DNA of 64,000 nucleotides, taken from assembly GCA_022844165.1 (NCBI GenBank), contig JALHMH010000008.1, positions 1 through 64,000 of the forward strand. The letters are read 5' to 3'. A program made the translations under genes and the position numbers. Shown here piece by piece: positions 7,874-55,561 of the stretch (positions are counted from its first letter, which is position 1; every line of letters begins with the position of its first letter). Below the pieces are notes generated by a model. It was not told the DNA's origin. It was given only the letters and a program-made list of their open reading frames with translations, and did no database searches. The DNA is from Lysobacterales bacterium. Its GTDB lineage: Bacteria; Pseudomonadota; Gammaproteobacteria; Xanthomonadales; SZUA-5.

Positions 7874-8487
7874 CTTTCTTGCAATTGCTGACGCATTTCC
7901 CCGGCATCATCCCCTCCATCTTGCTCGGTGCGATGCTGGTTCTATGGTTGCTGGTGATCCTGGGTGTCATCGACCACGAACACTTCGGGCCGGATTGGCT
8001 GGGCGGGGGTGTGGACGGTGCGGATACTGCGCCCGAGGTCCTGATGACGATGGGCCTGGACAAATTACCGTTTTCCATCGTGATCAGCGGCATCGTGTTT
8101 TTCTGGTGGCTGTTTACGCTCCTGGCGGTGGCGTTGATCTGGTCCTGGCTGCCGTTGCCGGCATGGATCGCGGGCAGCGCGATACTGATCGCCGCGCTCG
8201 TGGCCTCAGTCCCGGTCGCCGCGCTTTGCCTGCGGCCCTTAAAACCGCTGTTTGTCGTGCATACCAGCATTCGCGAAGAAAGTGTGGTGGGGAAACCGTG
8301 CAAGATTTTGACGCTGACAGTGGACGAGACTTTTGGTCAGGCGGAAGTGGTGGTTGGAACCGGTCACGTACTGAACGTCCGGGTCTGCGCTGACGTGCCC
8401 AATCAACTGACCAAGGGATCCAGTGCCCTGATCATTGATGTCGATCCCAAGACCAAACGGTATCGCGTCGAAGCCTATTCGGCCTGA
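7870..8487 (+). CDS. YqiJ/NfeD-like membrane protein with C-terminal OB fold
   Basis: Three to four hydrophobic helices, then VVGKPCKILT..FGQAEV..LTKGSSALII; precedes flotillin. Confidence 0.8.
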   Translation: MTFLQLLTHFPGIIPSILLGAMLVLWLLVILGVIDHEHFGPDWLGGGVDGADTAPEVLMTMGLDKLPFSIVISGIVFFWWLFTLLAVALIWSWLPLPAWIAGSAILIAALVASVPVAALCLRPLKPLFVVHTSIREESVVGKPCKILTLTVDETFGQAEVVVGTGHVLNVRVCADVPNQLTKGSSALIIDVDPKTKRYRVEAYSA

Positions 8488-8562
8488 GCCGTTCGCTTAA
8501 TCCGTGCTGATGCATTCTGTCGGTCGTCGTCTTTTTTGATTCACTCGTTCGAGGGCAAATTC

Positions 8563-10767
8563 ATGGACTCTTCGTTGTTAGTTCTGATCGCTGGCGTTGT
8601 TGTGCTGGTCGTGATGGTGCTGTTCATCGCGGCGCTCGTTGCCAAGTTCTATCGCAAAGTCGAGCAGGGCCACGCGATGATCGTTAATACGATGCGGGCT
8701 GAGCCGGAGGTGACGTTCACCGGGCGTCTGGTGATCCCGGTACTGCACAAAGTGGAAGAGATGGATGTCTCGATGAAGACTATCGAGATTGAGCGCTCAG
8801 GAAAGGAAGGCCTGATCTGTCGAGACAATATGCGCGCCGACATTAAGGTGAAGTTCTTCGTGCGTGTTAACAAAACTGCCGAGGACGTGCTGCGCGTCGC
8901 GCAGGCGATCGGCTGCGAGCGCGCCAGTAACCAGGAAACGTTAGAAGACCTGTTCAGCGCCAAGTTCTCGGAAGCGCTCAAGACCGTGGGCAAAGCGATG
9001 GACTTCGTCGACTTGTACCAGGCGCGAGATCGCTTTCGCGACGAAATTGTCCGCCAGATCGGCGGCGATCTATCGGGTTACGCGCTCGAAGATGCGGCGA
9101 TCGACTACCTGGAGCAAACGCCGCTCGAGAAGCTCGATCCGAACAACATTCTAGACGCCCAGGGCATCAAGAAGATCACCGAGTTGACGGCGGAGGAAAA
9201 CATCCGCACCAACGAGTTCCGTCGCAACGAAGAAATGCGCATCAAGAAGAAAGACGTAGAGACCGCCGAAGCAGTGCTCGAACTCGATCGGCAGAAAGCC
9301 TATGCCGAAGCGCATCAGCAGCGCGAAATCGCGATCACCAAATCGCGCGAGGAAGCTGAAGCCGCCAAAGTTGCCGCCGAGGAGCGCGCCAAGTCGGAGT
9401 TGGCCAGATTGTTAGCCGATCAGCAGATCGCCGTGCAGCAGGAGAATGTCAAGCGCGAGACCGAAGTGGCGCACAACAATCGACTCCGGGCCGTTGCGAT
9501 CGAAGAGGAAAAAGTCACGCGTGCGCGCCAGCTCGAGATCGTCGATCGCGAACGCGAAGTGACCCTGCAGCAGATCGAGAAAGAGAAGGCCGTCGAGGTG
9601 CAAAAGAAAGCGATTGCGGATGTGATCCGCGAGCGCATCGTCGTCGAACGCACCGTGGCCGAGCAGGAAGAAGAAATCAAGAACGTGCGCACGATGTCGG
9701 ATGCCGAACGCACCAGGAAGAGCACGGTGGTATTGGCCGAAGGTCAGGCGCAAGAGAAATTCATCGCCGAGACCCGAGATGCCGAGGCGCAAGAACAACG
9801 CGCGCGGCACAAAGCGAATGAAGAGCAAATTATGGCCGAGGCCAAGCTTGCTGTGGCGCAGAAAATGGCAGAGGCGAAGAAACGCGAGGCCGAAGGCATC
9901 GAAGCGGTCGCGGCGGCGGGCGGCCTGGCGGAAGCCAGGGTGGCGATGGCCAAAGCCGATGCGCATGAGAAGGATGGTTTGGTCGCCGCGAAGGTGCGCG
10001 TGGCCGAAGCCGACGCTCTCTCCAAGTACGGCGATGCCGAGGCGCATGCGCTGCAAGCCAAACTCGAGGCCGAAGCCGCCGGACGCGAAGTCCAGGGCAA
10101 GGCCGAAGCGCACGCGAAAATCGCCGATGCCGACGCCGTCGCCAAGCACGGCGCCGCCGAGGCGCAGGCACTGCAGGCCAGGTTGGAGGCCGAAGCCGCC
10201 GGCAAACTCAAGACCGGCGAAGCCGATGCGTTCGCGATCCGTGCGCGCTTCGAGGCCGAGGCCAAGGGCCTGAGCGAAAAGTTCGATGCGATGAGCAAGA
10301 TGAGCCCGGAGATCCGCGCGCACGAAGAGCAACGCATGCAGCTCGACTACAGCCACGCCCAAGCGCTCAAGGCCATCGACGCCAACGAGCAGATTGCGCG
10401 CGAGCAGGCAGACGTGTTGGGCAAAGCGCTGGGCACGGCCAAGATCGAAATCGTCGGCGGCGACGGCGAGTACTTCGAGCGCTTCATGCGCAGCCTGTCG
10501 ATCGGCAAAGCGATTGACGGCACGATCGGTCAAAGCCAGTTGCTAAGCCAGGCCTTCGCCGATCACAAGTCCGGCAAGCGCGATCTGGTGAACGATGCGA
10601 AGGAGCTGGTGGCCTCGTTGGGTGGGGCTGATGGCGTCAGGGACTTGAGCGTGGCGGCGTTGATGCAGAAGCTGGCGGCGGGCGGCAAGACCAAGGACGT
10701 CGAGACCTTGAAACGCTTGCTGGAAGGCGGGGCACGGGGCACGGGGCATGGGGCACGAGAGGAGTAA
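8563..10767 (+). CDS. Flotillin-like SPFH-domain protein (YqiK/PA3729-like)
   Basis: N-terminal TM, GLICRDNMRADIKVKFFVRVN, NNILDAQGIKKITE, long AE-rich coiled coil. Confidence 0.9.
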   Translation: MDSSLLVLIAGVVVLVVMVLFIAALVAKFYRKVEQGHAMIVNTMRAEPEVTFTGRLVIPVLHKVEEMDVSMKTIEIERSGKEGLICRDNMRADIKVKFFVRVNKTAEDVLRVAQAIGCERASNQETLEDLFSAKFSEALKTVGKAMDFVDLYQARDRFRDEIVRQIGGDLSGYALEDAAIDYLEQTPLEKLDPNNILDAQGIKKITELTAEENIRTNEFRRNEEMRIKKKDVETAEAVLELDRQKAYAEAHQQREIAITKSREEAEAAKVAAEERAKSELARLLADQQIAVQQENVKRETEVAHNNRLRAVAIEEEKVTRARQLEIVDREREVTLQQIEKEKAVEVQKKAIADVIRERIVVERTVAEQEEEIKNVRTMSDAERTRKSTVVLAEGQAQEKFIAETRDAEAQEQRARHKANEEQIMAEAKLAVAQKMAEAKKREAEGIEAVAAAGGLAEARVAMAKADAHEKDGLVAAKVRVAEADALSKYGDAEAHALQAKLEAEAAGREVQGKAEAHAKIADADAVAKHGAAEAQALQARLEAEAAGKLKTGEADAFAIRARFEAEAKGLSEKFDAMSKMSPEIRAHEEQRMQLDYSHAQALKAIDANEQIAREQADVLGKALGTAKIEIVGGDGEYFERFMRSLSIGKAIDGTIGQSQLLSQAFADHKSGKRDLVNDAKELVASLGGADGVRDLSVAALMQKLAAGGKTKDVETLKRLLEGGARGTGHGAREE
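10728..10759 (+). repeat. Heptamer tandem array (GGGGCAC)x4, left arm of an inverted repeat
   Basis: CGGGGCACGGGGCACGGGGCATGGGGCACGAG. Confidence 0.9.
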
Positions 10768-10789
10768 CAGCGCTGAGGAATTGGCCGCT

Positions 10790-11185
10790 GTGGCGATTCA
10801 GAGCTATCGCGATCTCGACGTTTGGCAACGTGGAGTGGACGTCGCTGTACGCATCTACGCCCTGGCGCGACGGTTCCCGAAGGACGAAGTTTATGGGATG
10901 ACATCTCAGACTCGTCGATCCGCGGTGTCGATCCCCTCCAACATTGCGGAAGGACACGCTCGAAGTGGAGCCCGGGAGTTTGCGCAGTTCGTTGCGGTTT
11001 CCTTGGGTTCGCTGGCCGAGCTTGAAACGCAGATCGAAATTGCGGTTCGAGTCGGTTATCTGAAACGCGATGAATCTGATGTTCTGGCAGCCTTGGAATC
11101 CATGTCTCACTTAAGAGCACAGTTACTCAACTTGCGCGCGGCACTGCTACGTCGCATCCAAGCGAGAGCGCGGGAGAAAGCCTGA
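10790..11185 (+). CDS. Four-helix-bundle protein (23S rRNA IVS/TIGR02436, Avd-like fold)
   Basis: SYRDLDVWQ, FPKDEVYGMTSQTRRSAVSIPSNIAEG, GSLAELETQ; GAGGAA RBS before GTG at 10790. Confidence 0.93.
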   Translation: MAIQSYRDLDVWQRGVDVAVRIYALARRFPKDEVYGMTSQTRRSAVSIPSNIAEGHARSGAREFAQFVAVSLGSLAELETQIEIAVRVGYLKRDESDVLAALESMSHLRAQLLNLRAALLRRIQARAREKA

Positions 11186-11277
11186 TGATTGGTTCGAACA
11201 AAGGTGGCGAACTGCACCATCCGTTGAGCATCTCTAGCATCACACTGCTACGTGGGTACTTTATAGCGCCGGAAGTG

Positions 11278-11309
11278 CTCGTGCCCCGTGCCTCGTGCCC
11301 CGTGACCCG
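11278..11309 (-). repeat. Heptamer tandem array (GTGCCCC)x4, right arm of the inverted repeat
   Basis: CTCGTGCCCCGTGCCTCGTGCCCCGTGACCCG; reverse complement matches the left arm at 29/32. Confidence 0.9.
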
Positions 11310-11312
11310 CTC

Positions 11313-14300
11313 ATGAGTACCGCGACGTTTGACCTGCTCCGCAAACGCCTGACTGCAGCTGCCCAGTCGCTACGAGCGAAAGCGGATTCGCTCAACTCCA
11401 AGCGCGTCGAAACCTTTGGCCGAACGGAGTCCAAGTTGCTGGCGCGTCTCTCGGCGCGCACCGAAAACAACTGCGTCGCCCGCGACATCGTTCGCGTAGG
11501 CAATGTGTTGTTGTTCGGCTACTCGGTGACGTTGGGCCTGAAAAAAGAAACCCGCGTCGACGATGTGTTTTGCCTCTACAAGCTCGATAGTGGCGCTGAG
11601 GGCACGGAGTTGACGGCAGTGCCCATGGAAGGCACGTTCCTTTCCGAGCAGCGTTTCGTTGCTGACTTTCGCGAGCTGTATACCTATTACAAGGCCACTG
11701 CGCTCGACCAGTTGCGCGTCGTCGGCGAGAAGCTGCTGCTGATTTTCCGCACTGGCAGCCAGCCCGGCGATAAGCGTGTGTTTCGCTTCGCGATCGAACG
11801 CGGCGGCGCAATCAACTACATCGACAATCGCGGCGAGCGCGATCATGTGCTGCCGGTCCCGCACAGTTTCGAGTGGGTGCCAGTCACGCGCGAACAGCAT
11901 GTGATGGGGCGCTTTCCGCACATCAACATACTCGACACGGTGTTCGTTGAGACCACCGGCGGCGATCTGACGGTCAAAATCGAAAATAACACCGAAACGG
12001 GCCTGGGCATTTTTGCCGAACCCGTCGACGACAAGAATCAGGCATTGGCTGACGCCGACATCGCTTACGCCGATCTGGGCGCGCTGATCGTGCTCAAGAT
12101 CCGTCCGTATCGCGAGAACGTGACACGGCACCTGGTGTTCAATCGGCGCCTCAAACAGGTCGTGCGCATCGACGCGATTGGCGATTCCTGCGTTGAGTTG
12201 CCCGAAGATCATGGCGTCGTTTTCCCAGGTGGGTATTACCTGGAATCGGGTGACACCAAGAACTTTCGCGATCTTGGCCACGATTTTGCTGGCTACCGCC
12301 TGAAGCGCACAGTGCGGGCGCCGAGCGGCGAAGATGTGCTGTATGTGTTCTACGACGAAGCCAGAGGCGACTATGCCTTGCTCGCTTACAATCTGATCGA
12401 TCGTGTGATCGCGCAGCCTTTGTTGGCCAGCGGCTACGCGCGCTTCGACGACGGTCGCATTTTGCTGATCACGCCCGAAGGCGAAGATGCCTCGCGGCTG
12501 CACACAATGCAGTTGTGGCAGACACCATTCGCCTCAGACGAGCATGCCGGCGCGCAACCGAAAGTTGCCGGATTGCTGGGGCGCCTGGGTAACGCGAACG
12601 TCGTCCGCGCCTTGGCGGAACTGCGCGAGCTCAGTCGCCTGGCCGAAGACGCCAACACGCAGGCCTCTTACGATCGCCTGCTGAAACTCGCAGCGCGGTG
12701 CAACGACGCGCATCCTTGGCTGGCGGAATCCGAGGTCGACAAGATCGCCCAGGAAGTGGCGTTGGTCGGACGCAGCGGGCGCGAAGCGCTGGATGCGTTC
12801 GACAAGCTGGAAAAGGCCAAACGCGCGGCGAGCGAGTCATTAGTCGCCGCCACACGGCAGGTCACCGAATTGCTCTCGCGTGTGGCGAGCCTGTTGTGGA
12901 AAACGCCGGACGATTTCACCGATGCAATTCGCTCGCTGAAACGACAGCGCGGCGAGCTGACGGGATTGAAGGAACAGCCGCACATCGATGTGGCGGCAGT
13001 CGGACGCGAGGACGCGCGCGTCACCGACGAATTGACGCGCATTGGCGAACGCGCGCTGAAGTTCTTCTCCGATCCAGCCAGTTTTGCGGCGTTGCGCAAG
13101 GGTTTGAACGAAGCCTCGGCGGCTGTGGACGCGGCAAAAACTACGACCGCTTTGAAACCGGTGGGCGACAAGCTGGATGCGCTGGCGGAGTCGTTGGATG
13201 GTTTGTCGGAACTGATCGCCAGCTTCGAGCAGACCGATGCGCAAGTGCGCGCCTCGCTGCTCGGCCAAACGTCCAATCTGTATGCCGAAGTCAACCGCAT
13301 TCGCGCTGCTGCTCGAGCGCGCCGCGAGGTGTTGCAAGAGCAAGAACAAGGCCTCGAATTCAGCGCGCAGCTGACGGTACTCGAACAATCTCTGACCAAT
13401 CTGCTGGCCAGGTCGGATTCACCCGAGGCGATAGACGAGGCGATGGCGCGCACGCTGGGCACCATCGAGCAACTCGAAGGTCGCTTCGGCGCGCAGCCGC
13501 AGTTTTTGATCGAACTGACCACACGTCGCGAAGCTGCGCTTGAGGCGTTTGCGTCGCGGCGCGATCAGGTCACCGCGCAGCGCGACAAACGCGCACAAGG
13601 ATTGCGCGAGGCCATCACCCGCGTGCTCGATGGCATACCGCGGCGCACCGCCAAGCTGGCGCAAGCGGAAGAGTTGCATGCGTTTTTCGCCGGCGACACG
13701 CTGGTCGAGCGAGCGCAATCGCAGATCAACGAGTTGCGCAGTCTCGGTGCGGCGGTCCAGGCCGACGAGTTAGCTGGACGTTTGCGCAGCCTCAAAGAAT
13801 CCGGTTTGCGCGATTTGCGCGATCGCCTCGAGCTTGGCACAGGAGAATCACTGGCGCTCGGTCGCCACCGCTTTACTATCGAACGACGTCCGCTCGATCT
13901 GGCGCTGCTGCACGACGAGCGCGGGCTGCATTTGCAGCTGACCGGCACCGATTATCGTGTGTCGTTGGCCGAGCCTGGCGCTGAGCAGTTCCAGTCGGTT
14001 TGGGGACAGATGCTGCCGAACGAAACGCCGGACGTGTATCGCGCAGAGTTCTTGGCCTGGCGCGTCTGGCGTCTTGCCAGCGGCGGCGAGCAAGCGGCAC
14101 AAGCAGCACTCAAGGCAGAAAACGCCGAGGCCTTACTGGACTACGTTGCGAGCGTCGCGCAGACGTATCCCGCCGAGGACTATCAGCGCGGCGTGCACGA
14201 CAGCGATGCCGCGAAAATTGTTGCCATGTTGGCTCGCATCGCAGAGCAGGCGGGAGAACTGCGTTGGCCGGCCGCACAGCGCGTGTTGGCGCAAGCGTGG

Positions 14301-16538
14301 TTCGCGACGCTCGATGGCGTGGGGCAGGACGCGGTGAAAGCGCTAGCGAATGGCTTATCGTGGTTCTTGACCAAGGGCGCCATGCCACTGCCACCGTCGT
14401 GGGCCGATGGCCTGGCTGCTGTGGCAAAGGCGCTGGCGCTGCCACACGACCCGGCCAGCCAGGAGGGTGCAGCACGCCATATTGCCGCCAGCCTCGCCAG
14501 CGCCACACATGCTTTTGCGGCCAGTGGTGCGGCACTCGATCTCGCCGACGCGGTTGCGCGCGAGGTGCCGCGGACCGCGCTTGCGGCGCTGGAGGCGCCG
14601 TTGTCACTCGCCGAACGCTGGCAGCTTGCGTCCGCCTGGTGTGCCTCGCTGCAACGCGAGGCTCCGGCATCGGTGGTGTGCGAGGCGGCGGCTATCGTGG
14701 CCTTTCCGCAGCTCCAGCGCGAGCGTGTGAACGTCGAGTTGCATACCGTGATCAAGGAGTTGCGGGGTGAGCATCCGCGCCTCCATCAAGGTGCGCTGAA
14801 GCTGGATTTCGCGGAATTCTTGACGCGCCTGGCGATGCACGAGCAGACGATAGCGCCGGCTTGGCATGGATTTGCTGGGCTGCGCCATGGGCTGAGCGAA
14901 CGCGAGCGCAAACGACTAGGCCTGGATCGTTTCTTCGCCAAGCCGCTCGCGGGTTTCGTGCGTAACCGGCTCATCGACGAGGTCTATCTGCCGCTGATTG
15001 GCAACAATCTGGCCAAACAAATCGGCACGCTCGGCGACAACCGTTCCGATCGTTCCGGGCTGCTGCTGTTGATCTCGCCGCCCGGCTACGGAAAAACGAC
15101 CTTGATGGAATACATCGCCGATCGCCTCGGCATGATTTTCGTCCGCGTGAATGGGCCAACCATCGGCCATGAAACGACCGCGCTCGATCCCGCAAGTGCG
15201 CCACACCGTGGCGCTGCAGATGAGTTGGTGAAGTTGAATCTGGGCCTGGCGATGGGCGTCAACGTGATGCTGTATGTTGACGATATCCAGCACTGTTCCC
15301 CGGAATTCCTGCAGAAGTTTATTTCCCTGGCCGACGGCACTCGCCGCGTCGATGCCGTGATCGATGGCGTTGCGCGCACGATCGATTTGCGCGGCAAACG
15401 ATTTGCACTGGTTATGGCGGGCAATCCGTACACCGAAACGGGCGACGTATTTCGCATTCCGGACATGCTCGCCAACCGCGCCGATGTCTATAACCTGGGC
15501 GATGTTCTGAGTGGTCGCGAAGCGCTGTTCGCGGACAGCTACATCGAAAACGCGCTCACCGCCAACCCGCTCGCTGCACCACTGGCCGAGCGTCCACGTA
15601 ACGACATTTTGAGCGTTTTGCGTATTGCGCGCGGCGACGACGAAACGCCACCGGCTGGATTGCCGGGCGGTTTGGAACTGATCGAACTGGTGAAACGCAT
15701 GGTTGCCGTGCGCGATGTCTTGAGCCGCGTCAATTCGGCCTATGTGGCGAGTGCTGCGCAGGACGATGCCTATCGCACCGAGCCGCCGTTCAAGCTGCAG
15801 GGCAGCTACCGCAACATGGTCAAGCTCACTGCGCAATTGTCGCCGCTGATGACCGAGCAGGAACTGGATTCGCTGATCCGCGATCATTACCGTGGCGAGG
15901 CGCAGACGTTGGGCGCTCGCGCCGAAGAGAATCTGCTGAAGCTCGCGCATTTGATCGGCCAGCCATCGGATGACGAAAAAGCGCGTTGGAGGACTGTGGT
16001 CGATGACTTCCAGCGCCTGATGAAGCAAGGCGGCAAAGACGCAGATGGCGCGACTCGCACCGCGCAAGTGCTTGGCGGGATTGCTCATGCTCTGGACAAG
16101 CAGAATGCACAAACCGCAACCGCCGCCCAGCGCGCCGCCGATGGTCTGGCGAGCATCGCTGCGCAGTTGCAGCAACAACACGCCGGCGCTGGCAGCGCAG
16201 CGCAGTCGTTGGAAAAGGCGATCGAAAAACAGGCAACGGCGATTGCGCAGCAACTGGAGCGGCAAACAGTGCAAGCGGGCAGCAACCGCAAAGCACTCGA
16301 TGCACTGCAAAGCCTGAGTGCGATTCGCGATGCACTGGCACGCGAGCCCAAACTGGACGTGCCCGAATCCCTGGTCGTTGCGCTGGCGCGTATGGCCAAA
16401 GCCTACGAAGATACGCTGGTACCGATCGTCTCCGCGCTGCATCACAAAACCACGCTGGATCACGATATCTGGGAGCAGGTCAGGGCAGTGCGGGCAGAAG
16501 TCGATGCGATGATGAAGCGGATCGGTAGATCGAAGTAG
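11313..16538 (+). CDS. Large coiled-coil AAA+ ATPase (DUF3686, 'DNA repair ATPase', PA3728-like)
   Basis: TENNCVARDIV, Walker A SPPGYGKTT, Walker B LYVDDIQH, RTEPPFKLQGSYRNM. Confidence 0.9.
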   Translation: MSTATFDLLRKRLTAAAQSLRAKADSLNSKRVETFGRTESKLLARLSARTENNCVARDIVRVGNVLLFGYSVTLGLKKETRVDDVFCLYKLDSGAEGTELTAVPMEGTFLSEQRFVADFRELYTYYKATALDQLRVVGEKLLLIFRTGSQPGDKRVFRFAIERGGAINYIDNRGERDHVLPVPHSFEWVPVTREQHVMGRFPHINILDTVFVETTGGDLTVKIENNTETGLGIFAEPVDDKNQALADADIAYADLGALIVLKIRPYRENVTRHLVFNRRLKQVVRIDAIGDSCVELPEDHGVVFPGGYYLESGDTKNFRDLGHDFAGYRLKRTVRAPSGEDVLYVFYDEARGDYALLAYNLIDRVIAQPLLASGYARFDDGRILLITPEGEDASRLHTMQLWQTPFASDEHAGAQPKVAGLLGRLGNANVVRALAELRELSRLAEDANTQASYDRLLKLAARCNDAHPWLAESEVDKIAQEVALVGRSGREALDAFDKLEKAKRAASESLVAATRQVTELLSRVASLLWKTPDDFTDAIRSLKRQRGELTGLKEQPHIDVAAVGREDARVTDELTRIGERALKFFSDPASFAALRKGLNEASAAVDAAKTTTALKPVGDKLDALAESLDGLSELIASFEQTDAQVRASLLGQTSNLYAEVNRIRAAARARREVLQEQEQGLEFSAQLTVLEQSLTNLLARSDSPEAIDEAMARTLGTIEQLEGRFGAQPQFLIELTTRREAALEAFASRRDQVTAQRDKRAQGLREAITRVLDGIPRRTAKLAQAEELHAFFAGDTLVERAQSQINELRSLGAAVQADELAGRLRSLKESGLRDLRDRLELGTGESLALGRHRFTIERRPLDLALLHDERGLHLQLTGTDYRVSLAEPGAEQFQSVWGQMLPNETPDVYRAEFLAWRVWRLASGGEQAAQAALKAENAEALLDYVASVAQTYPAEDYQRGVHDSDAAKIVAMLARIAEQAGELRWPAAQRVLAQAWFATLDGVGQDAVKALANGLSWFLTKGAMPLPPSWADGLAAVAKALALPHDPASQEGAARHIAASLASATHAFAASGAALDLADAVAREVPRTALAALEAPLSLAERWQLASAWCASLQREAPASVVCEAAAIVAFPQLQRERVNVELHTVIKELRGEHPRLHQGALKLDFAEFLTRLAMHEQTIAPAWHGFAGLRHGLSERERKRLGLDRFFAKPLAGFVRNRLIDEVYLPLIGNNLAKQIGTLGDNRSDRSGLLLLISPPGYGKTTLMEYIADRLGMIFVRVNGPTIGHETTALDPASAPHRGAADELVKLNLGLAMGVNVMLYVDDIQHCSPEFLQKFISLADGTRRVDAVIDGVARTIDLRGKRFALVMAGNPYTETGDVFRIPDMLANRADVYNLGDVLSGREALFADSYIENALTANPLAAPLAERPRNDILSVLRIARGDDETPPAGLPGGLELIELVKRMVAVRDVLSRVNSAYVASAAQDDAYRTEPPFKLQGSYRNMVKLTAQLSPLMTEQELDSLIRDHYRGEAQTLGARAEENLLKLAHLIGQPSDDEKARWRTVVDDFQRLMKQGGKDADGATRTAQVLGGIAHALDKQNAQTATAAQRAADGLASIAAQLQQQHAGAGSAAQSLEKAIEKQATAIAQQLERQTVQAGSNRKALDALQSLSAIRDALAREPKLDVPESLVVALARMAKAYEDTLVPIVSALHHKTTLDHDIWEQVRAVRAEVDAMMKRIGRSK

Positions 16539-52042: not shown

Positions 52043-53426
52043 CCCCGCGCGCTCCCGTCACAATGCCGCCCGCCGTCAGCGTCAATGGATCGAGCAAATC
52101 GCGTAAATCGTGATCGGACAACGCTGTCATCTCGCGAGCCACATCCATAATGGGTCGTCCGCTGGCGTAGGCTGCCTTGGCGATTTTGGCGCCAAGTTCG
52201 TAACCGATGACAGGATTCAGTGCCGTCACCAGAATCGGATTTCGCGCCAGTGCGTCTTGCAATCGGTCGTGGCGAACGCGCAAGCCAGCAATGCTCTGCG
52301 CCAGTGCCGGCAGCGCTCGCGCCGGCAGCTCGATGCTTTCGATCAGATTACGAGCAATCAGTGGCAGCATCAAGTTGAGTTGAAAGTTGCCGGACTGCCC
52401 AGCGATCGTGATCGCAGCATCATTGCCAATCATCTGCGCCGCAACCATGGTTACCGCTTCTGCGATGACCGGATTGACCTTGCCAGGCATGATCGAGGAG
52501 CCGGGTTGCAGCGCCGGCAATTCGATTTCGCCTAAACCGGTGAGCGGGCCGGAGTTCATCCAGCGCAGGTCGTTGGCGATTTTCATCATCGTACAGGCCA
52601 GCGTTTTCAACTGGCCCGACAACTCGACACATTCGTCTTTGGCAGCGATAGCAACGAACAAGTTGGCTGCGGGACCGAATTCAATCCCAGTCATAGCACT
52701 TAGTTGATGACAAACGGTCGCGGAAAACCTCGGGTCGGCATTGATTCCGGTGCCAATCGCAGTGCCACCGAGCGGCAAGGCCTGCACTCGCGCCAGGCTG
52801 TCAATCAGGCGCTGCTGCGCGGCTTGCAGTTGCGCCTCCCAAGCGCCGAATTCCTGGCCCAGGGTCATTGGCATTGCGTCCATCAGATGCGTACGCCCGG
52901 TCTTGACCACACCGGCAAACTCCCGGGCGCGCGTCGCGATCGTATGGCGCAATTGGCCGAGCGCTGGCAACAGCTGCTCGCGAACGGCGAGTGCAGCCGC
53001 GACCTGGATGGCGCTGGGGATGACGTCGTTAGAAGACTGCCCAAGATTGACCTCATCATTGGGATGGACCGCGACCCCGGCGCGAGTCGCCAACGTTGCA
53101 ATGACTTCGTTGGCGTTCATGTTGCTGGAGGTGCCAGAGCCAGTTTGGAACACGTCGACGGGAAATGCCTCGGCGAAATCGCCGTGCGCGATCGCCAACG
53201 CCGCCTTCTCGATTGCCGCCGCTTTCTCGGCAGGCAGCCCGCCTAGCTCGCTATTGGCGCGCGCTGCGGCAGCTTTGATCAGGGCCAGCGCGCGAACAAA
53301 CAAACGTGGCATCGGTTGTCCGCCGATCCGAAAGTTGTCGATCGCGCGTTGCGTTTGCGCGCCCCAGAGTGCGTCCGCCGGTACCTTAAGTTCGCCCATG
53401 CTGTCCTGTTCGATGCGAGTGTTCAT
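52035..53426 (-). CDS. fumC: Class II fumarate hydratase
   Basis: WGAQTQRA, FQTGSGTSSNMNANEV, GRTHLMDA, GSSIMPGKVNP. Confidence 0.95.
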   Translation of the reverse strand: MNTRIEQDSMGELKVPADALWGAQTQRAIDNFRIGGQPMPRLFVRALALIKAAAARANSELGGLPAEKAAAIEKAALAIAHGDFAEAFPVDVFQTGSGTSSNMNANEVIATLATRAGVAVHPNDEVNLGQSSNDVIPSAIQVAAALAVREQLLPALGQLRHTIATRAREFAGVVKTGRTHLMDAMPMTLGQEFGAWEAQLQAAQQRLIDSLARVQALPLGGTAIGTGINADPRFSATVCHQLSAMTGIEFGPAANLFVAIAAKDECVELSGQLKTLACTMMKIANDLRWMNSGPLTGLGEIELPALQPGSSIMPGKVNPVIAEAVTMVAAQMIGNDAAITIAGQSGNFQLNLMLPLIARNLIESIELPARALPALAQSIAGLRVRHDRLQDALARNPILVTALNPVIGYELGAKIAKAAYASGRPIMDVAREMTALSDHDLRDLLDPLTLTAGGIVTGARGGG

Positions 53427-53605: not shown

Positions 53606-55561
53606 ATGAGCACGTTTCACGATGATGGAATGAGCAACCACTCCAACAACATGAGCTTTCACGACGTGTTGGAACTCAATCAGAAGCGCCGCGAACTGTT
53701 GAAAGGCGGTGTCGCTGCGGCGACCGCAACCGTGGTCGGCGTTCCGTTGTTGACGGCCCGCTCGAACGTGGAAGCGCAGACCTTTACATCGACACCAGGC
53801 ATCGGCTTTAAGCCCGTGCCGGCCACCGATGCCGACACACTCGTGGTTCCTGAAGGTTACCGCGCCGACGTGCTGATCGCCTGGGGCGACCCGATCTCCG
53901 ACAACTTGAAGTTCTTCCGCTACGACGCGACCAACAGTGCCGAAGATCAAGAGCAGCAGTGGGGCATGCACAACGATGGCATGCACTTTTTCCCGTTCGA
54001 GGAGCGCGCGCTACTTGGGCGACCGGTACCATCGAGCCGCCGCGGCCTTTTGGTGAGTAATCACGAATACACCGACGACGGCATCTTGCACGAAGACGGT
54101 CAGCGCACCTGGACACCCGCGAAAGTCCGAAAATCGCAGGCGGCGCATGGCGTGGGCATTGTCGAGTTGTTGTACGACGGCAGCACGTGGCGTGTTGTTC
54201 GTCCCAGCGTCTATGCACGGCGCATCACAGGCTACACGCCGATGGCAGTCAGCGGTCCGGCTAAAGGGCATCGTCTGTTGCGTACTGCCGCGGACCCAGC
54301 GGGTGAGCGCATCCTGGGCACCATCAATAACTGTGCGCACGGCTACACGCCCTGGGGCACGTATTTGACGTGCGAGGAAAACTTCAACGGTTATTTCGCA
54401 AACGGTGCGACGATTCCCGCCGATCAGCGACGCTACGGCATCAGCGCCACCGGGTTCGGTTATCGCTGGCACGAACACGACGAGCGCTTTAACGCGGCCC
54501 TGCACCCGAATGAACCGAATCGATTCGGCTGGGTCGTTGAAATCGATCCTTTCGATCCGACCTCGACGCCGATCAAGCGCACCGCGCTCGGCCGCATCAA
54601 GCATGAAGGCGCGTGGGTTACCTTGTCGCCGGACAATCGCGTCGTCGTTTACATGGGCGACGACGAGCGCTTCGAGTACATTTACAAGTATGTCTCGCGA
54701 GGCTTCTTCAAGCCCGGCGATCGCAATAACAACCGCTCGTTGCTTGACGACGGTACCCTGTACGTGGCGCGATTTGACGAGAACCTGTCGGGCGAGTGGA
54801 TCCCGCTGGTTTGGGGTCAGAATGGCCTGACGCCGGAAAACGGGTTCGCCGATCAAGGCGAAGTGCTGGTCAAGACGCGGCAAGCGGCCGATGTGGTCGG
54901 CGCGACGAAGATGGATCGGCCAGAGTGGATTGCTGTTAACCCACAAACCAAAGACGTGTATTGCACCTTGACCAACAACGATCGCCGCGGCAACACCGGT
55001 CAACCTGCGGTGGATGCGGCTAACCCGCGCGGACAGAACGTCTTTGGCCATATCATTCGATGGGCAGAAGACGGTCAAAATGCGACCGCCCGCCGATTCC
55101 GCTGGCAGCTGTTTGTGCAATGCGGCGACCCGGCACTTGGCAATCCGGCGCGCGCAGGCAATATCAATGGCGATAAGTTCGGGAGCCCGGATGGACTTTG
55201 GTTCGATGACCGCGGCATTCTCTGGGTACAAACCGATATTTCCACGTCCATCGTCTCGCGCCCGGGCAACGAGCGCGGTGACTACCGAAATATCGGCAAC
55301 AATCAGATGCTCGCGTACGATCCGATCAGCGGTGAGTTCCGGCGCTTTATGACCGGACCGCGCGGCTGCGAAATCACCGGCGTGATTTCGACGCCGGACC
55401 TGCGCACGATGTTCGTCAACATCCAGCATCCGGGCGAGCCGGCCAGCGAACGCCTGACGCCCGAGAACCCGACCGCCATTTCGAGTTGGCCTTTCGGCGG
55501 ACGGCCGCGATCGGCAACCGTTGTTATCCGCAAGTTAGATGGTGGAATCATCGGTACCTGA
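53606..55561 (+). CDS. phoX: PhoX-family (DUF839) alkaline phosphatase, Tat-exported
   Basis: RRELLKG Tat motif, NHEY, TPWGTYLTCEEN, LGRIKHE, MDRPEW, NIQHPG. Confidence 0.92.
   Translation: MSTFHDDGMSNHSNNMSFHDVLELNQKRRELLKGGVAAATATVVGVPLLTARSNVEAQTFTSTPGIGFKPVPATDADTLVVPEGYRADVLIAWGDPISDNLKFFRYDATNSAEDQEQQWGMHNDGMHFFPFEERALLGRPVPSSRRGLLVSNHEYTDDGILHEDGQRTWTPAKVRKSQAAHGVGIVELLYDGSTWRVVRPSVYARRITGYTPMAVSGPAKGHRLLRTAADPAGERILGTINNCAHGYTPWGTYLTCEENFNGYFANGATIPADQRRYGISATGFGYRWHEHDERFNAALHPNEPNRFGWVVEIDPFDPTSTPIKRTALGRIKHEGAWVTLSPDNRVVVYMGDDERFEYIYKYVSRGFFKPGDRNNNRSLLDDGTLYVARFDENLSGEWIPLVWGQNGLTPENGFADQGEVLVKTRQAADVVGATKMDRPEWIAVNPQTKDVYCTLTNNDRRGNTGQPAVDAANPRGQNVFGHIIRWAEDGQNATARRFRWQLFVQCGDPALGNPARAGNINGDKFGSPDGLWFDDRGILWVQTDISTSIVSRPGNERGDYRNIGNNQMLAYDPISGEFRRFMTGPRGCEITGVISTPDLRTMFVNIQHPGEPASERLTPENPTAISSWPFGGRPRSATVVIRKLDGGIIGT

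Follow-up and report, generated by a model that had tools for sequence, protein, structure and literature searches.

The 64,000-nucleotide (nt) stretch of Lysobacterales bacterium DNA analysed here (positions 1 to 64,000 of contig JALHMH010000008.1, assembly GCA_022844165.1; hereafter the window) carries, in the gap that separates a flotillin-like from a DUF3686 gene, a small gene of the four-helix-bundle family PF05635 that is boxed by two inverted arrays of a tandem heptamer. Cassettes of this kind are real, ancient and widespread. Among known elements they come closest to the open reading frame (ORF)-bearing intervening sequence (IVS) of ribosomal RNA (rRNA), and the cassette in the window has the same anatomy, as judged from its sequence. 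We consider it probable that the window holds an IVS-type PF05635 cassette, equipped with its own ribosome-binding site and lodged in an operon spacer, whose arms would pair in the transcript and be cut by RNase III.

The enclosed gene (PF05635/TIGR02436; S23p, '23S rRNA IVS protein', Avd-like) lies on the + strand at 10790 to 11185 and encodes 131 amino acids, when read from the GTG at 10790. Although the longest enclosed ORF spans 10748 to 11185, its ATG at 10748 falls within the left arm; GTG 10790 is the likelier start, given that homologues align there, with N-termini that read M-x-I/V-x-S-Y/F-R/K-D-L, and that a Shine-Dalgarno-like GAGGAA (10776 to 10781, + strand) precedes it by 8 nt. 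The ORF matches PF05635 at an E value of 3e-33 (114.7 bits, cut-off 33.8) and TIGR02436, 'four helix bundle protein', with 108.8 bits (cut-off 24), which bears out an earlier first-pass annotation of this DNA in placing an intact IVS-family gene in the loop. Profile matching finds this PF05635 gene to be the only one in the genome that contains the window (G000 in our numbering of genomes). The nearest solved structure is PDB 2GSC (E value 1.3e-24, five chains), which is the PF05635 protein XCC0516 of Xanthomonas campestris, and the S23p protein of that species forms a homopentameric ring (PMC4990558). By homology to Avd and to pentameric XCC0516, we take the window protein to be a putative nucleic-acid-binding ring.

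The arms, each of 33 nt on the + strand, occupy 10727 to 10759 (left, 5') and 11278 to 11310 (right, 3'), and a repeat search finds them complementary at 30 of 33 positions (91%) and 518 nt apart. Tandem Repeats Finder resolves both as period-7 tandems of 4.3 copies (10728 to 10757 and 11280 to 11309), with the unit GGGGCAC in the G-rich left arm, which fits a G4N3 x4 pattern, and GTGCCCC in the C-rich right arm. Read base by base in the + strand RNA, the three non-Watson-Crick positions of the stem comprise one G:A, one G:U and one U:G, in keeping with the earlier description of inverted heptamer arrays in which two of three differences become G-U pairs. This inverted repeat is well beyond chance: the arm pair has a strict score of 24 (30 matches, 3 mismatches), against a best score of 18 among 136 shifted control intervals. 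The minimum-free-energy fold of 10700 to 11340 includes the long stem (-268.3 kcal/mol, z = -3.25, equalled by none of 20 shuffles). Between the gene and the right arm lies a spacer of 92 nt (11186 to 11277, + strand) with no family match. The loop thus encodes a member of the S23p family, the 5' arm consists of tandem heptamers, and the terminal inverted repeats make a stem of approximately 28 to 33 bp (28 bp in Coxiella). This is the build of an ORF-bearing rRNA intervening sequence, in line with the first-pass annotation's label of an IVS-like cassette. The arms also have the layout of Xanthomonas-type repeats, namely tandem G-rich 7-nt units, about four to an array, placed between genes as convergent inverted pairs.

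Other classes of element fit less well. The cassette is flanked by two protein-coding genes rather than inserted in a 23S or 16S rRNA helix, and no Rfam family matches within positions 8000 to 13000. A site scan of 10300 to 11700 detected nothing resembling a promoter and, at the arms, nothing resembling a terminator; nor does a T run follow the right arm, as it would the stem of an intrinsic terminator. Neither the transposase nor the conserved interiors expected of repetitive extragenic palindromic (REP) sequences with their REP-associated tyrosine transposase (RAYT), or of miniature inverted-repeat transposable elements, were found: the five neighbouring proteins scanned against Pfam include no transposase, as the first-pass annotation had stated, and the interiors of 11 pairs of arms are mutually unlike, except for one duplication. 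Among the low-depth, short metagenome contigs obtained from four DNA runs, none spans the stretch and no joint skips the cassette, and contig ends fall at the arms.

Inverted heptamer boxing is the rule for the PF05635 family across phyla. Scanning one genome per species with a query alignment of four PF05635 proteins yielded 80 loci from many phyla, including Planctomycetota, Acidobacteriota, Chloroflexota, Bacteroidota, cyanobacteria, Verrucomicrobiota and candidate phyla. The 260 nt upstream of each gene were aligned to the reverse complement of the 430 nt downstream, and scores of at least 14 were taken as positive. By this measure inverted repeats flank the gene in 53 of 75 testable loci. 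Two controls drawn from the same loci gave far fewer: 2 of 136 when the interval was displaced by 1600 nt, and 2 of 46 when other ORFs took the place of the PF05635 gene. The first-pass annotation had staked its proposal on homologues carrying such repeats, and this expectation is upheld. Arms of clear periodicity (n = 39) have period 7 in 34 cases, period 8 in four and period 9 in one; the median arm is 27 nt long, or about four units, and the units themselves vary widely among diverse loci (e.g., GGGGTTA, GGGATCA, CAGTTGT, AGTGGTT and GGCGAAT). G exceeds C in the arm preceding the gene at 52 of 53 loci; the inversion of the arms thus puts a G-rich arm on the 5' side whichever strand is read, which is the 'convergent' arrangement of Rehm et al. 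(2015). In 33 of 51 loci the genes on either side are both co-directional with the PF05635 gene. The median distance from the end of the upstream open frame to the left arm is 3 nt, and an arm that enters the upstream stop codon, like that of the window, is common. Of 20 homologous loci scanned for location, none lies in rRNA.

Among related genomes, cassettes occupy carA|carB, hslV|hslU, accB|accC, acetolactate-synthase-like|aldehyde dehydrogenase and other junctions (gene names being our reading of translations and tblastx matches). Each site has its own unit and several units may occur in one genome, G020 having seven PF05635 copies; 29 distinct arms score at least 14 among the relatives' loci tested. 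Five genomes of other phyla contain 4, 4, 4, 14 and 8 PF05635 matches, with units that vary between copies, and 14 of the 27 loci in those genomes reach the same score. A class-level family search found a PF05635 match in 57 of 301 genomes, a tally that includes the unpublished genome G152, used for no other claim. Both control ORFs that scored positive (L067:962-1346 and L090:511-883) are small, at approximately 125 amino acids, and share loci with a PF05635 gene; they may be further cassettes. One homologue (L087/L185, in G338) is surrounded by a longer and more complex inverted repeat (score 57) that is made of a unit of about 36 nt instead of heptamers. The plasmid copy of Nostoc PCC 7120 was set aside as an unclean example, having an adjoining ISL3 transposase and a C-rich heptamer array on its 3' side only.

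The flotillin|DUF3686 junction of relatives records the history of the cassette. An intact PF05635 gene is present there in the window's genome (arms 30/33, unit GGGGCAC), G016 (27/28, an 8-nt unit, GAGGGCAC), G007 (25/28, GGGGCAR) and G020 (31/34, GGGGCAS), while G018 retains a 24-residue PF05635 remnant between arms that match at 26/30. G022 and G008 have GGGGCTG-like arms (28/29 and 27/31) around 176 to 187 nt with no detectable gene; G014, G006, G033, G021, G012 and G019 have other heptamer-type or REP-like hairpins; and G004, G024 and G005 have no notable repeat. G001, of the same genus as the window's genome, lacks the arms and has a DUF433 and DUF5615 gene pair instead (L033:970-1504). 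The comparison with relatives that the first-pass annotation had called for thus does reveal junctions without the cassette, for example in these last four genomes. Seven genomes have arms of different units at this junction, each pair being 86 to 97% self-complementary; the two arms have changed unit together. The 8-nt unit that forms the arms of the orthologous G016 cassette (L034) coexists with GGGGCAC in the window's genome, where it makes up three arrays.

At this junction the PF05635 proteins are 50 to 64% identical to that of the window, and the flanking genes 68 to 82%. A maximum-likelihood tree of 38 PF05635 proteins from related genomes, built without the short rows L151 and L170, places together proteins that share an insertion site, not those that share a genome. 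The sixteen site labels require 15 changes, which is the minimum, whereas shuffled labels average 29.2 and none of 200 shuffles gets down to 15; the four proteins of the flotillin site make up a single clade (support 83/76), recovered in 84% of bootstrap trees. This grouping by site, together with the intact, decayed, gene-less and otherwise occupied versions of the junction, identifies the cassette lineage as an old resident of the flotillin|DUF3686 spacer across genera, subject to repeated loss and decay. The mobile half of the earlier inference, 'a small mobile or RNA-level element', needs amendment: the element is not visibly mobile over short time scales, its proteins clustering by site across genera. 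Another spacer of the window's genome (C7:106083-106650, L173), which holds PF05635 cassettes in the loci of six relatives, contains a ribbon-helix-helix (RHH) gene followed by a PIN-like frame that is apparently frameshifted; this pair and the DUF433 and DUF5615 pair of G001 both resemble small toxin-antitoxin modules.

The heptamer arms are not special to this gene: the window arms belong to a genome-wide family of GGGGCAC arrays. The window's genome (4.68 Mb, 60.5% G+C, 59 contigs) has 37 arrays of at least three GGGGCAC-like units and 110 matches, with at most one mismatch, to the two-unit 14-mer pattern GGGGCACGGGGCAC; these array counts are lower bounds, since repeats break the assembly, and arrays indeed stand at contig ends (C8:137759-137828, on a contig of 137833 nt, and C52:4-31). 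An independent scan assigned the GGGGCAC unit to 22 of 29 period-7 arrays, and found 9, 13, 3 and 1 arrays of periods 5, 6, 8 and 9, respectively. Many arrays form gene-less inverted pairs, the interiors of which (about 70 to 90 nt) are mutually unlike except for one local duplication, and by crude gene calls most gene-less arrays lie within about 50 nt of gene ends, between co-directional ORFs. A six-frame hidden Markov model search of 17 gene-less interiors recovered, as gene remnant, only that already known in G018 (E value 0.0009; all others above 4). Along C24:53212-60255 (L174), inverted GGGGCAC pairs or arrays occur in several successive spacers of a same-strand run of ORFs; C-rich arrays stand at 53332, 53569 and 53806, spaced by 237 nt, and at 54050, a further 244 nt on, and two of these pairs have an identical interior, reflecting local tandem duplication. 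The otherwise dissimilar interiors of C17:45070-45200, C24:53212-53359 and C28:25743-25879 share a short CACAAAAC-like or CCCAAAAC-like motif.

As to the host operon, the upstream gene (8536 to 10767, + strand; 743 amino acids) has its final 12 or so codons and its stop within the left arm. Its product ends in ...GGARGTGHGAREE*, encoded inside that arm, as previously proposed. The label 'flotillin' is a weak one, NCBIfam FloT matching at an E value of 1e-4, far below its cut-off, with no Pfam hit. Downstream, a gene of 1741 amino acids with DUF3686 (E value 3.4e-176), DUF7902 and AAA ATPase domains (11313 to 16538, + strand; start taken from homologues) begins at ATG 11313, 2 nt past the right arm and without a Shine-Dalgarno motif. 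In the window and at four further loci (L034, L036, L037 and L039) this start codon lies 2 to 8 nt past the right arm and has no Shine-Dalgarno motif; GGAGG precedes it in G001, where the arms are absent. The DUF3686 gene is present in 21 of 39 related genomes, the window's included. It is adjacent to, and co-directional with, the flotillin-like gene in 16 relatives' fetched loci besides the window's own (L032), which vindicates the earlier claim that the cassette separates genes adjacent in an operon.

How such a cassette would behave can be sketched from its anatomy. As no promoter-like site was found and the neighbours are co-directional, the cassette would lack its own promoter and be transcribed together with the operon. 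In the transcript the arms would pair as a G+C-rich stem of about 33 bp, looping out the gene, and host RNase III, the gene for which is present in the window's genome, would cut this stem as it does in rRNA intervening sequences. We infer such RNA processing by analogy with those sequences. The predicted products are an upstream message, a panhandle RNA carrying the PF05635 gene, and a downstream message whose leader would be short and C-rich; this last product would fit the absence of a Shine-Dalgarno motif before ATG 11313 in the window, and at the corresponding codon in four relatives. If cuts between cistrons or within tolerant rRNA helices are harmless, this would explain why cassettes persist at exactly such places. 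The alternative raised in the first-pass annotation, that the element is 'bypassed', finds no support.

Several observations weigh against this IVS-type interpretation. RNase III cleavage at the window is argued by analogy only, and the authors of the Coxiella study consider that the organism does not produce S23p and that the RNA is unstable once excised (PMC4990558). Selection on a sense-strand RNA stem predicts an excess of wobble pairs among arm mismatches, yet across 80 loci there is none: 71 G:U stand against 95 A:C, alongside 2440 Watson-Crick pairs and 183 other combinations. The match between the arms may follow simply from the fact that each is an array of the same unit, with a process at the level of DNA keeping the two alike. 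Gene-less pairs of GGGGCAC arms are common and only one tested interior has a gene remnant, so the arms do not need the gene. Further, 22 of the 75 testable homologues have no clear inverted repeat, the shifted intervals that served as one control were mostly coding DNA, and the control for gene boundaries was small (46 ORFs).

The same observations invite a reading in which the repeats are maintained as DNA, with a logic like that of REP/RAYT: a PF05635 lineage and its cognate 7-nt unit would form a two-component system. The gene would occupy a 'master' pair of inverted arrays, and its product, possibly partnered by a reverse transcriptase as Avd is, would bind, maintain or spread arrays of the unit, leaving the RNA stem as a side effect. 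We regard this as rather unlikely. In its favour, the window's genome, with its single PF05635 gene and the 22 of 29 period-7 arrays built of that gene's unit, suggests a cognate gene-and-repeat system; PF05635 copies of one genome differ in unit; copies at new sites bring their own arms (G020 L154/L162 and G002 L138, all within the ABC-site clade); the approximately 4 kb flanks of 7 of 39 diverse loci hold 10 extra same-unit arrays, compared with 0.1 for permuted units; the arm mismatch spectrum has no strand bias; and two RVT_1 (reverse transcriptase) genes are present in the window's genome. We also counted unit-specific 14-mers, allowing one mismatch, across relatives. GGGACTC matches number 383 (G020), 514 (G003) and 345 (G008) where a gene with that unit or a one-letter variant is present and, where no such gene was detected, 38 (G022, with a decayed gene), 0 (G000), 1 (G001), 7 (G016), 0 (G018), 325 (G007) and 105 (G002). 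For GGTTGTC the counts are 293 (G020), 445 (G008) and 71 (G016) with the gene, against 4 (G000) and 1 (G003) where none was detected; for GGGGCAS they are 110 (G000, by the narrower pattern given above), 198 (G007), 339 (G016) and 1052 (G020) with the gene, against 14 (G018), 13 (G002), 13 (G035), 111 (G001), 493 (G008), 185 (G022) and 137 (G003). Unit 14-mers are thus abundant (71 to 1052) in all 10 genome-unit combinations that have the gene, while 9 of the 16 without a detected gene have at most 14 matches and one more has 38; the other six still have at least 105, including the 111 of G001, which has no PF05635 gene at all. This census fits a system of gene plus cognate repeat in which arrays outlive the gene, but the genomes compared are close kin and several assemblies are fragmented (that of G007 being 86% complete), so common descent may account for the association. 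A reversed-pattern control is not independent for GGGGCAC-type repeats, since reversal yields the same repeat with its phase shifted. Among 39 relatives, 13 of the 17 genomes that lack PF05635 have no match to the generic pattern GGGGNNN x3 + GGGG, and 15 of the 22 that have it show one or more; this is weak evidence, since the pattern is not unit-specific and is polluted by long poly-G runs, likely sequencing artefacts, in the G025, G029 and G016 assemblies. Against a two-component system, moreover, stand a protein without a catalytic domain, the clustering of proteins by site, which implies that movement is rare, and the position of both reverse transcriptase genes off the window's contig. 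Extended to the family, the idea becomes that PF05635 proteins and heptamer arrays make up one widespread two-part system, in which each lineage would own a cognate unit and have its gene inside one inverted pair of it, the presumed pentameric ring would bind, protect or propagate arrays of that unit, and these would then reach spacers within co-transcribed gene sets and tolerant rRNA helices; we hold this as a tentative, rather unlikely proposal. The G/T-rich strand running 5' to 3' from each host flank into the insert (52 of 53 loci) fits it, and such fixed polarity would be in keeping with repeats added from a template, as at telomeres, with a reverse transcriptase as the partner.

Three further explanations account for less of the evidence. 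That the arrays are regulatory simple repeats of the Xanthomonas type, forming G-quadruplexes (G4) and enclosing the gene only incidentally, is improbable: the left arm does fit the G4N3 x4 pattern, the Xanthomonas repeats form G4 in vitro and prefer four units and convergent pairs between aligned ORFs (PMC4692102), and the gene-less arrays of the window's genome adjoin gene ends, mostly between ORFs called co-directional by crude methods; but only 17 of 53 PF05635-flanking arms have at least four runs of three or more G, 20 of 53 have one G run or none (e.g., CAGTTGT, AGTGGTT and GGCGAAT), and 53 of 75, set beside the 2 of 136 and 2 of 46 of the controls, is too frequent for an incidental association with the gene. 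We think it very improbable that the cassette is a selfish addiction-like or defence-like unit which, like toxin-antitoxin pairs, settles in permissive operon spacers. The occupation of the G001 junction by the DUF433 and DUF5615 pair, and of another PF05635 spacer by the RHH gene and PIN-like frame, would suit such a unit, as would the frequency of PF05635 among immune-context genes associated with diversity-generating retroelements (DGRs; PMC10053308); yet there is one small gene and no partner, the PIN-like frame has no Pfam hit, and shared sites may merely reflect spacers that tolerate insertion. Finally, a strong stem between two cistrons could be a transcription terminator or attenuator, which we judge extremely improbable, given the missing T run and the site scan at the arms, a 518-nt loop with an intact conserved gene, unlike that of a terminator, and a downstream gene that begins 2 nt past the arm.

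Taken with its relatives, this locus unites the ORFs of rRNA intervening sequences, bacterial heptamer repeats and stand-alone Avd-like genes in a single object, a gene enclosed by inverted heptamer arrays, which is found mainly between co-transcribed genes and only sometimes in rRNA. To our knowledge, the rRNA-IVS ORF has had no known function since the 1990s, and we know of no explanation for the bacterial heptamer repeats, which have been catalogued; stand-alone Avd-like 'four helix bundle' genes rank with the more frequent small genes that lack an explanation. The two-part system, if true, would explain the rRNA IVS ORFs, the Xanthomonas and cyanobacterial heptamers and the stand-alone Avd-like genes by one mechanism. 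In the literature searched, which missed most subscription journals, we found no report of PF05635 genes generally boxed by inverted heptamer arrays or placed in operon spacers, and both the presence of the cassette in operon spacers and its generality appear not to have been described previously. There is also a practical warning for annotation: through the arms, neighbouring genes gain spurious codons, start sites are obscured and assemblies break. These findings raise the questions of whether RNase III cuts operon mRNAs at such stems, whether the protein recognizes its own unit, and whether arrays decay once the gene is lost.

Among known systems, REP sequences with their RAYT transposase (REPINs) offer the example of a single-copy gene flanked by inverted copies of a dispersed short repeat, in lineage-specific families. 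The window cassette resembles them in having a single-copy gene between inverted copies of a genome-dispersed short repeat, and in the lineage-specificity of the repeat families. It differs in that its protein is a small helical bundle without nuclease or transposase domain, its arms are tandem heptamers and not palindromic REPs, and its gene-less counterparts have interiors that are not conserved. Heptamer repeats are known from cyanobacteria too, as short tandemly repeated repetitive (STRR) sequences. The Avd protein of DGRs has a homologous four-helix-bundle fold and resembles PF05635 (PMC10053308), whereas the window has no adjacent reverse transcriptase, template or variable repeat; RVT_1 genes occur only on contigs C20 and C6, at C20:50352-50990 and C6:73950-74588 (L171 and L172), and not on the window's C8, and neither is near a listed GGGGCAC array. 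The figure legend of a large CRISPR survey names '23S rRNA IVP' among novel CRISPR-linked gene associations (PMC10910872).

Another parallel is found in X. campestris, which has 186 arrays of GGGAATC type, including 70 convergent inverted pairs, with four units preferred and a location between aligned ORFs (Rehm et al., 2015; PMC4692102). Assembled transcripts of Xanthomonas start or stop in these G4-forming repeats more often than in control repeats (PMC4692102). The GGGAATC repeats and the window arms have in common 7-nt units, about four to an array, a G-rich arm lying 5' on both strands, dispersal through the genome, and positions adjoining stop or start codons between aligned ORFs; the window arms differ in their unit, GGGGCAC, and in enclosing a gene as a pair. 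The study of Rehm et al. draws no link to PF05635, although in its supplement repeat #15 overlaps the start codon of XCC0516, beside bccP, and XCC0516 is called only 'conserved' (PMC4692102).

Closest of all are the ORF-bearing 23S rRNA intervening sequences of Coxiella burnetii and Leptospira. That of Coxiella is 428 nt long, sits in helix 45 and has a 28-bp stem of terminal inverted repeats, with two or three tandem GACAGAT heptamers directly before the start of S23p (Warrier et al., 2016; PMC4990558); in vitro its stem is cleaved midway by RNase III, as mapped by rapid amplification of cDNA ends (PMC4990558). PF05635 domains also occur in both the 16S and the 23S rRNA insertions of candidate phyla (PMC11270868). 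The host differs, being an mRNA operon spacer in the window and helix 45 of 23S rRNA in Coxiella, and RNase III cutting has been demonstrated for the Coxiella IVS, whereas the window cassette is known from sequence alone. What the two have in common is the protein family encoded in the loop, a stem of approximately 28 to 33 bp, heptamers in the 5' arm before the ORF, a number of units that varies between strains or genomes, and an ORF that decays or vanishes while the arms stay (PMC4990558).

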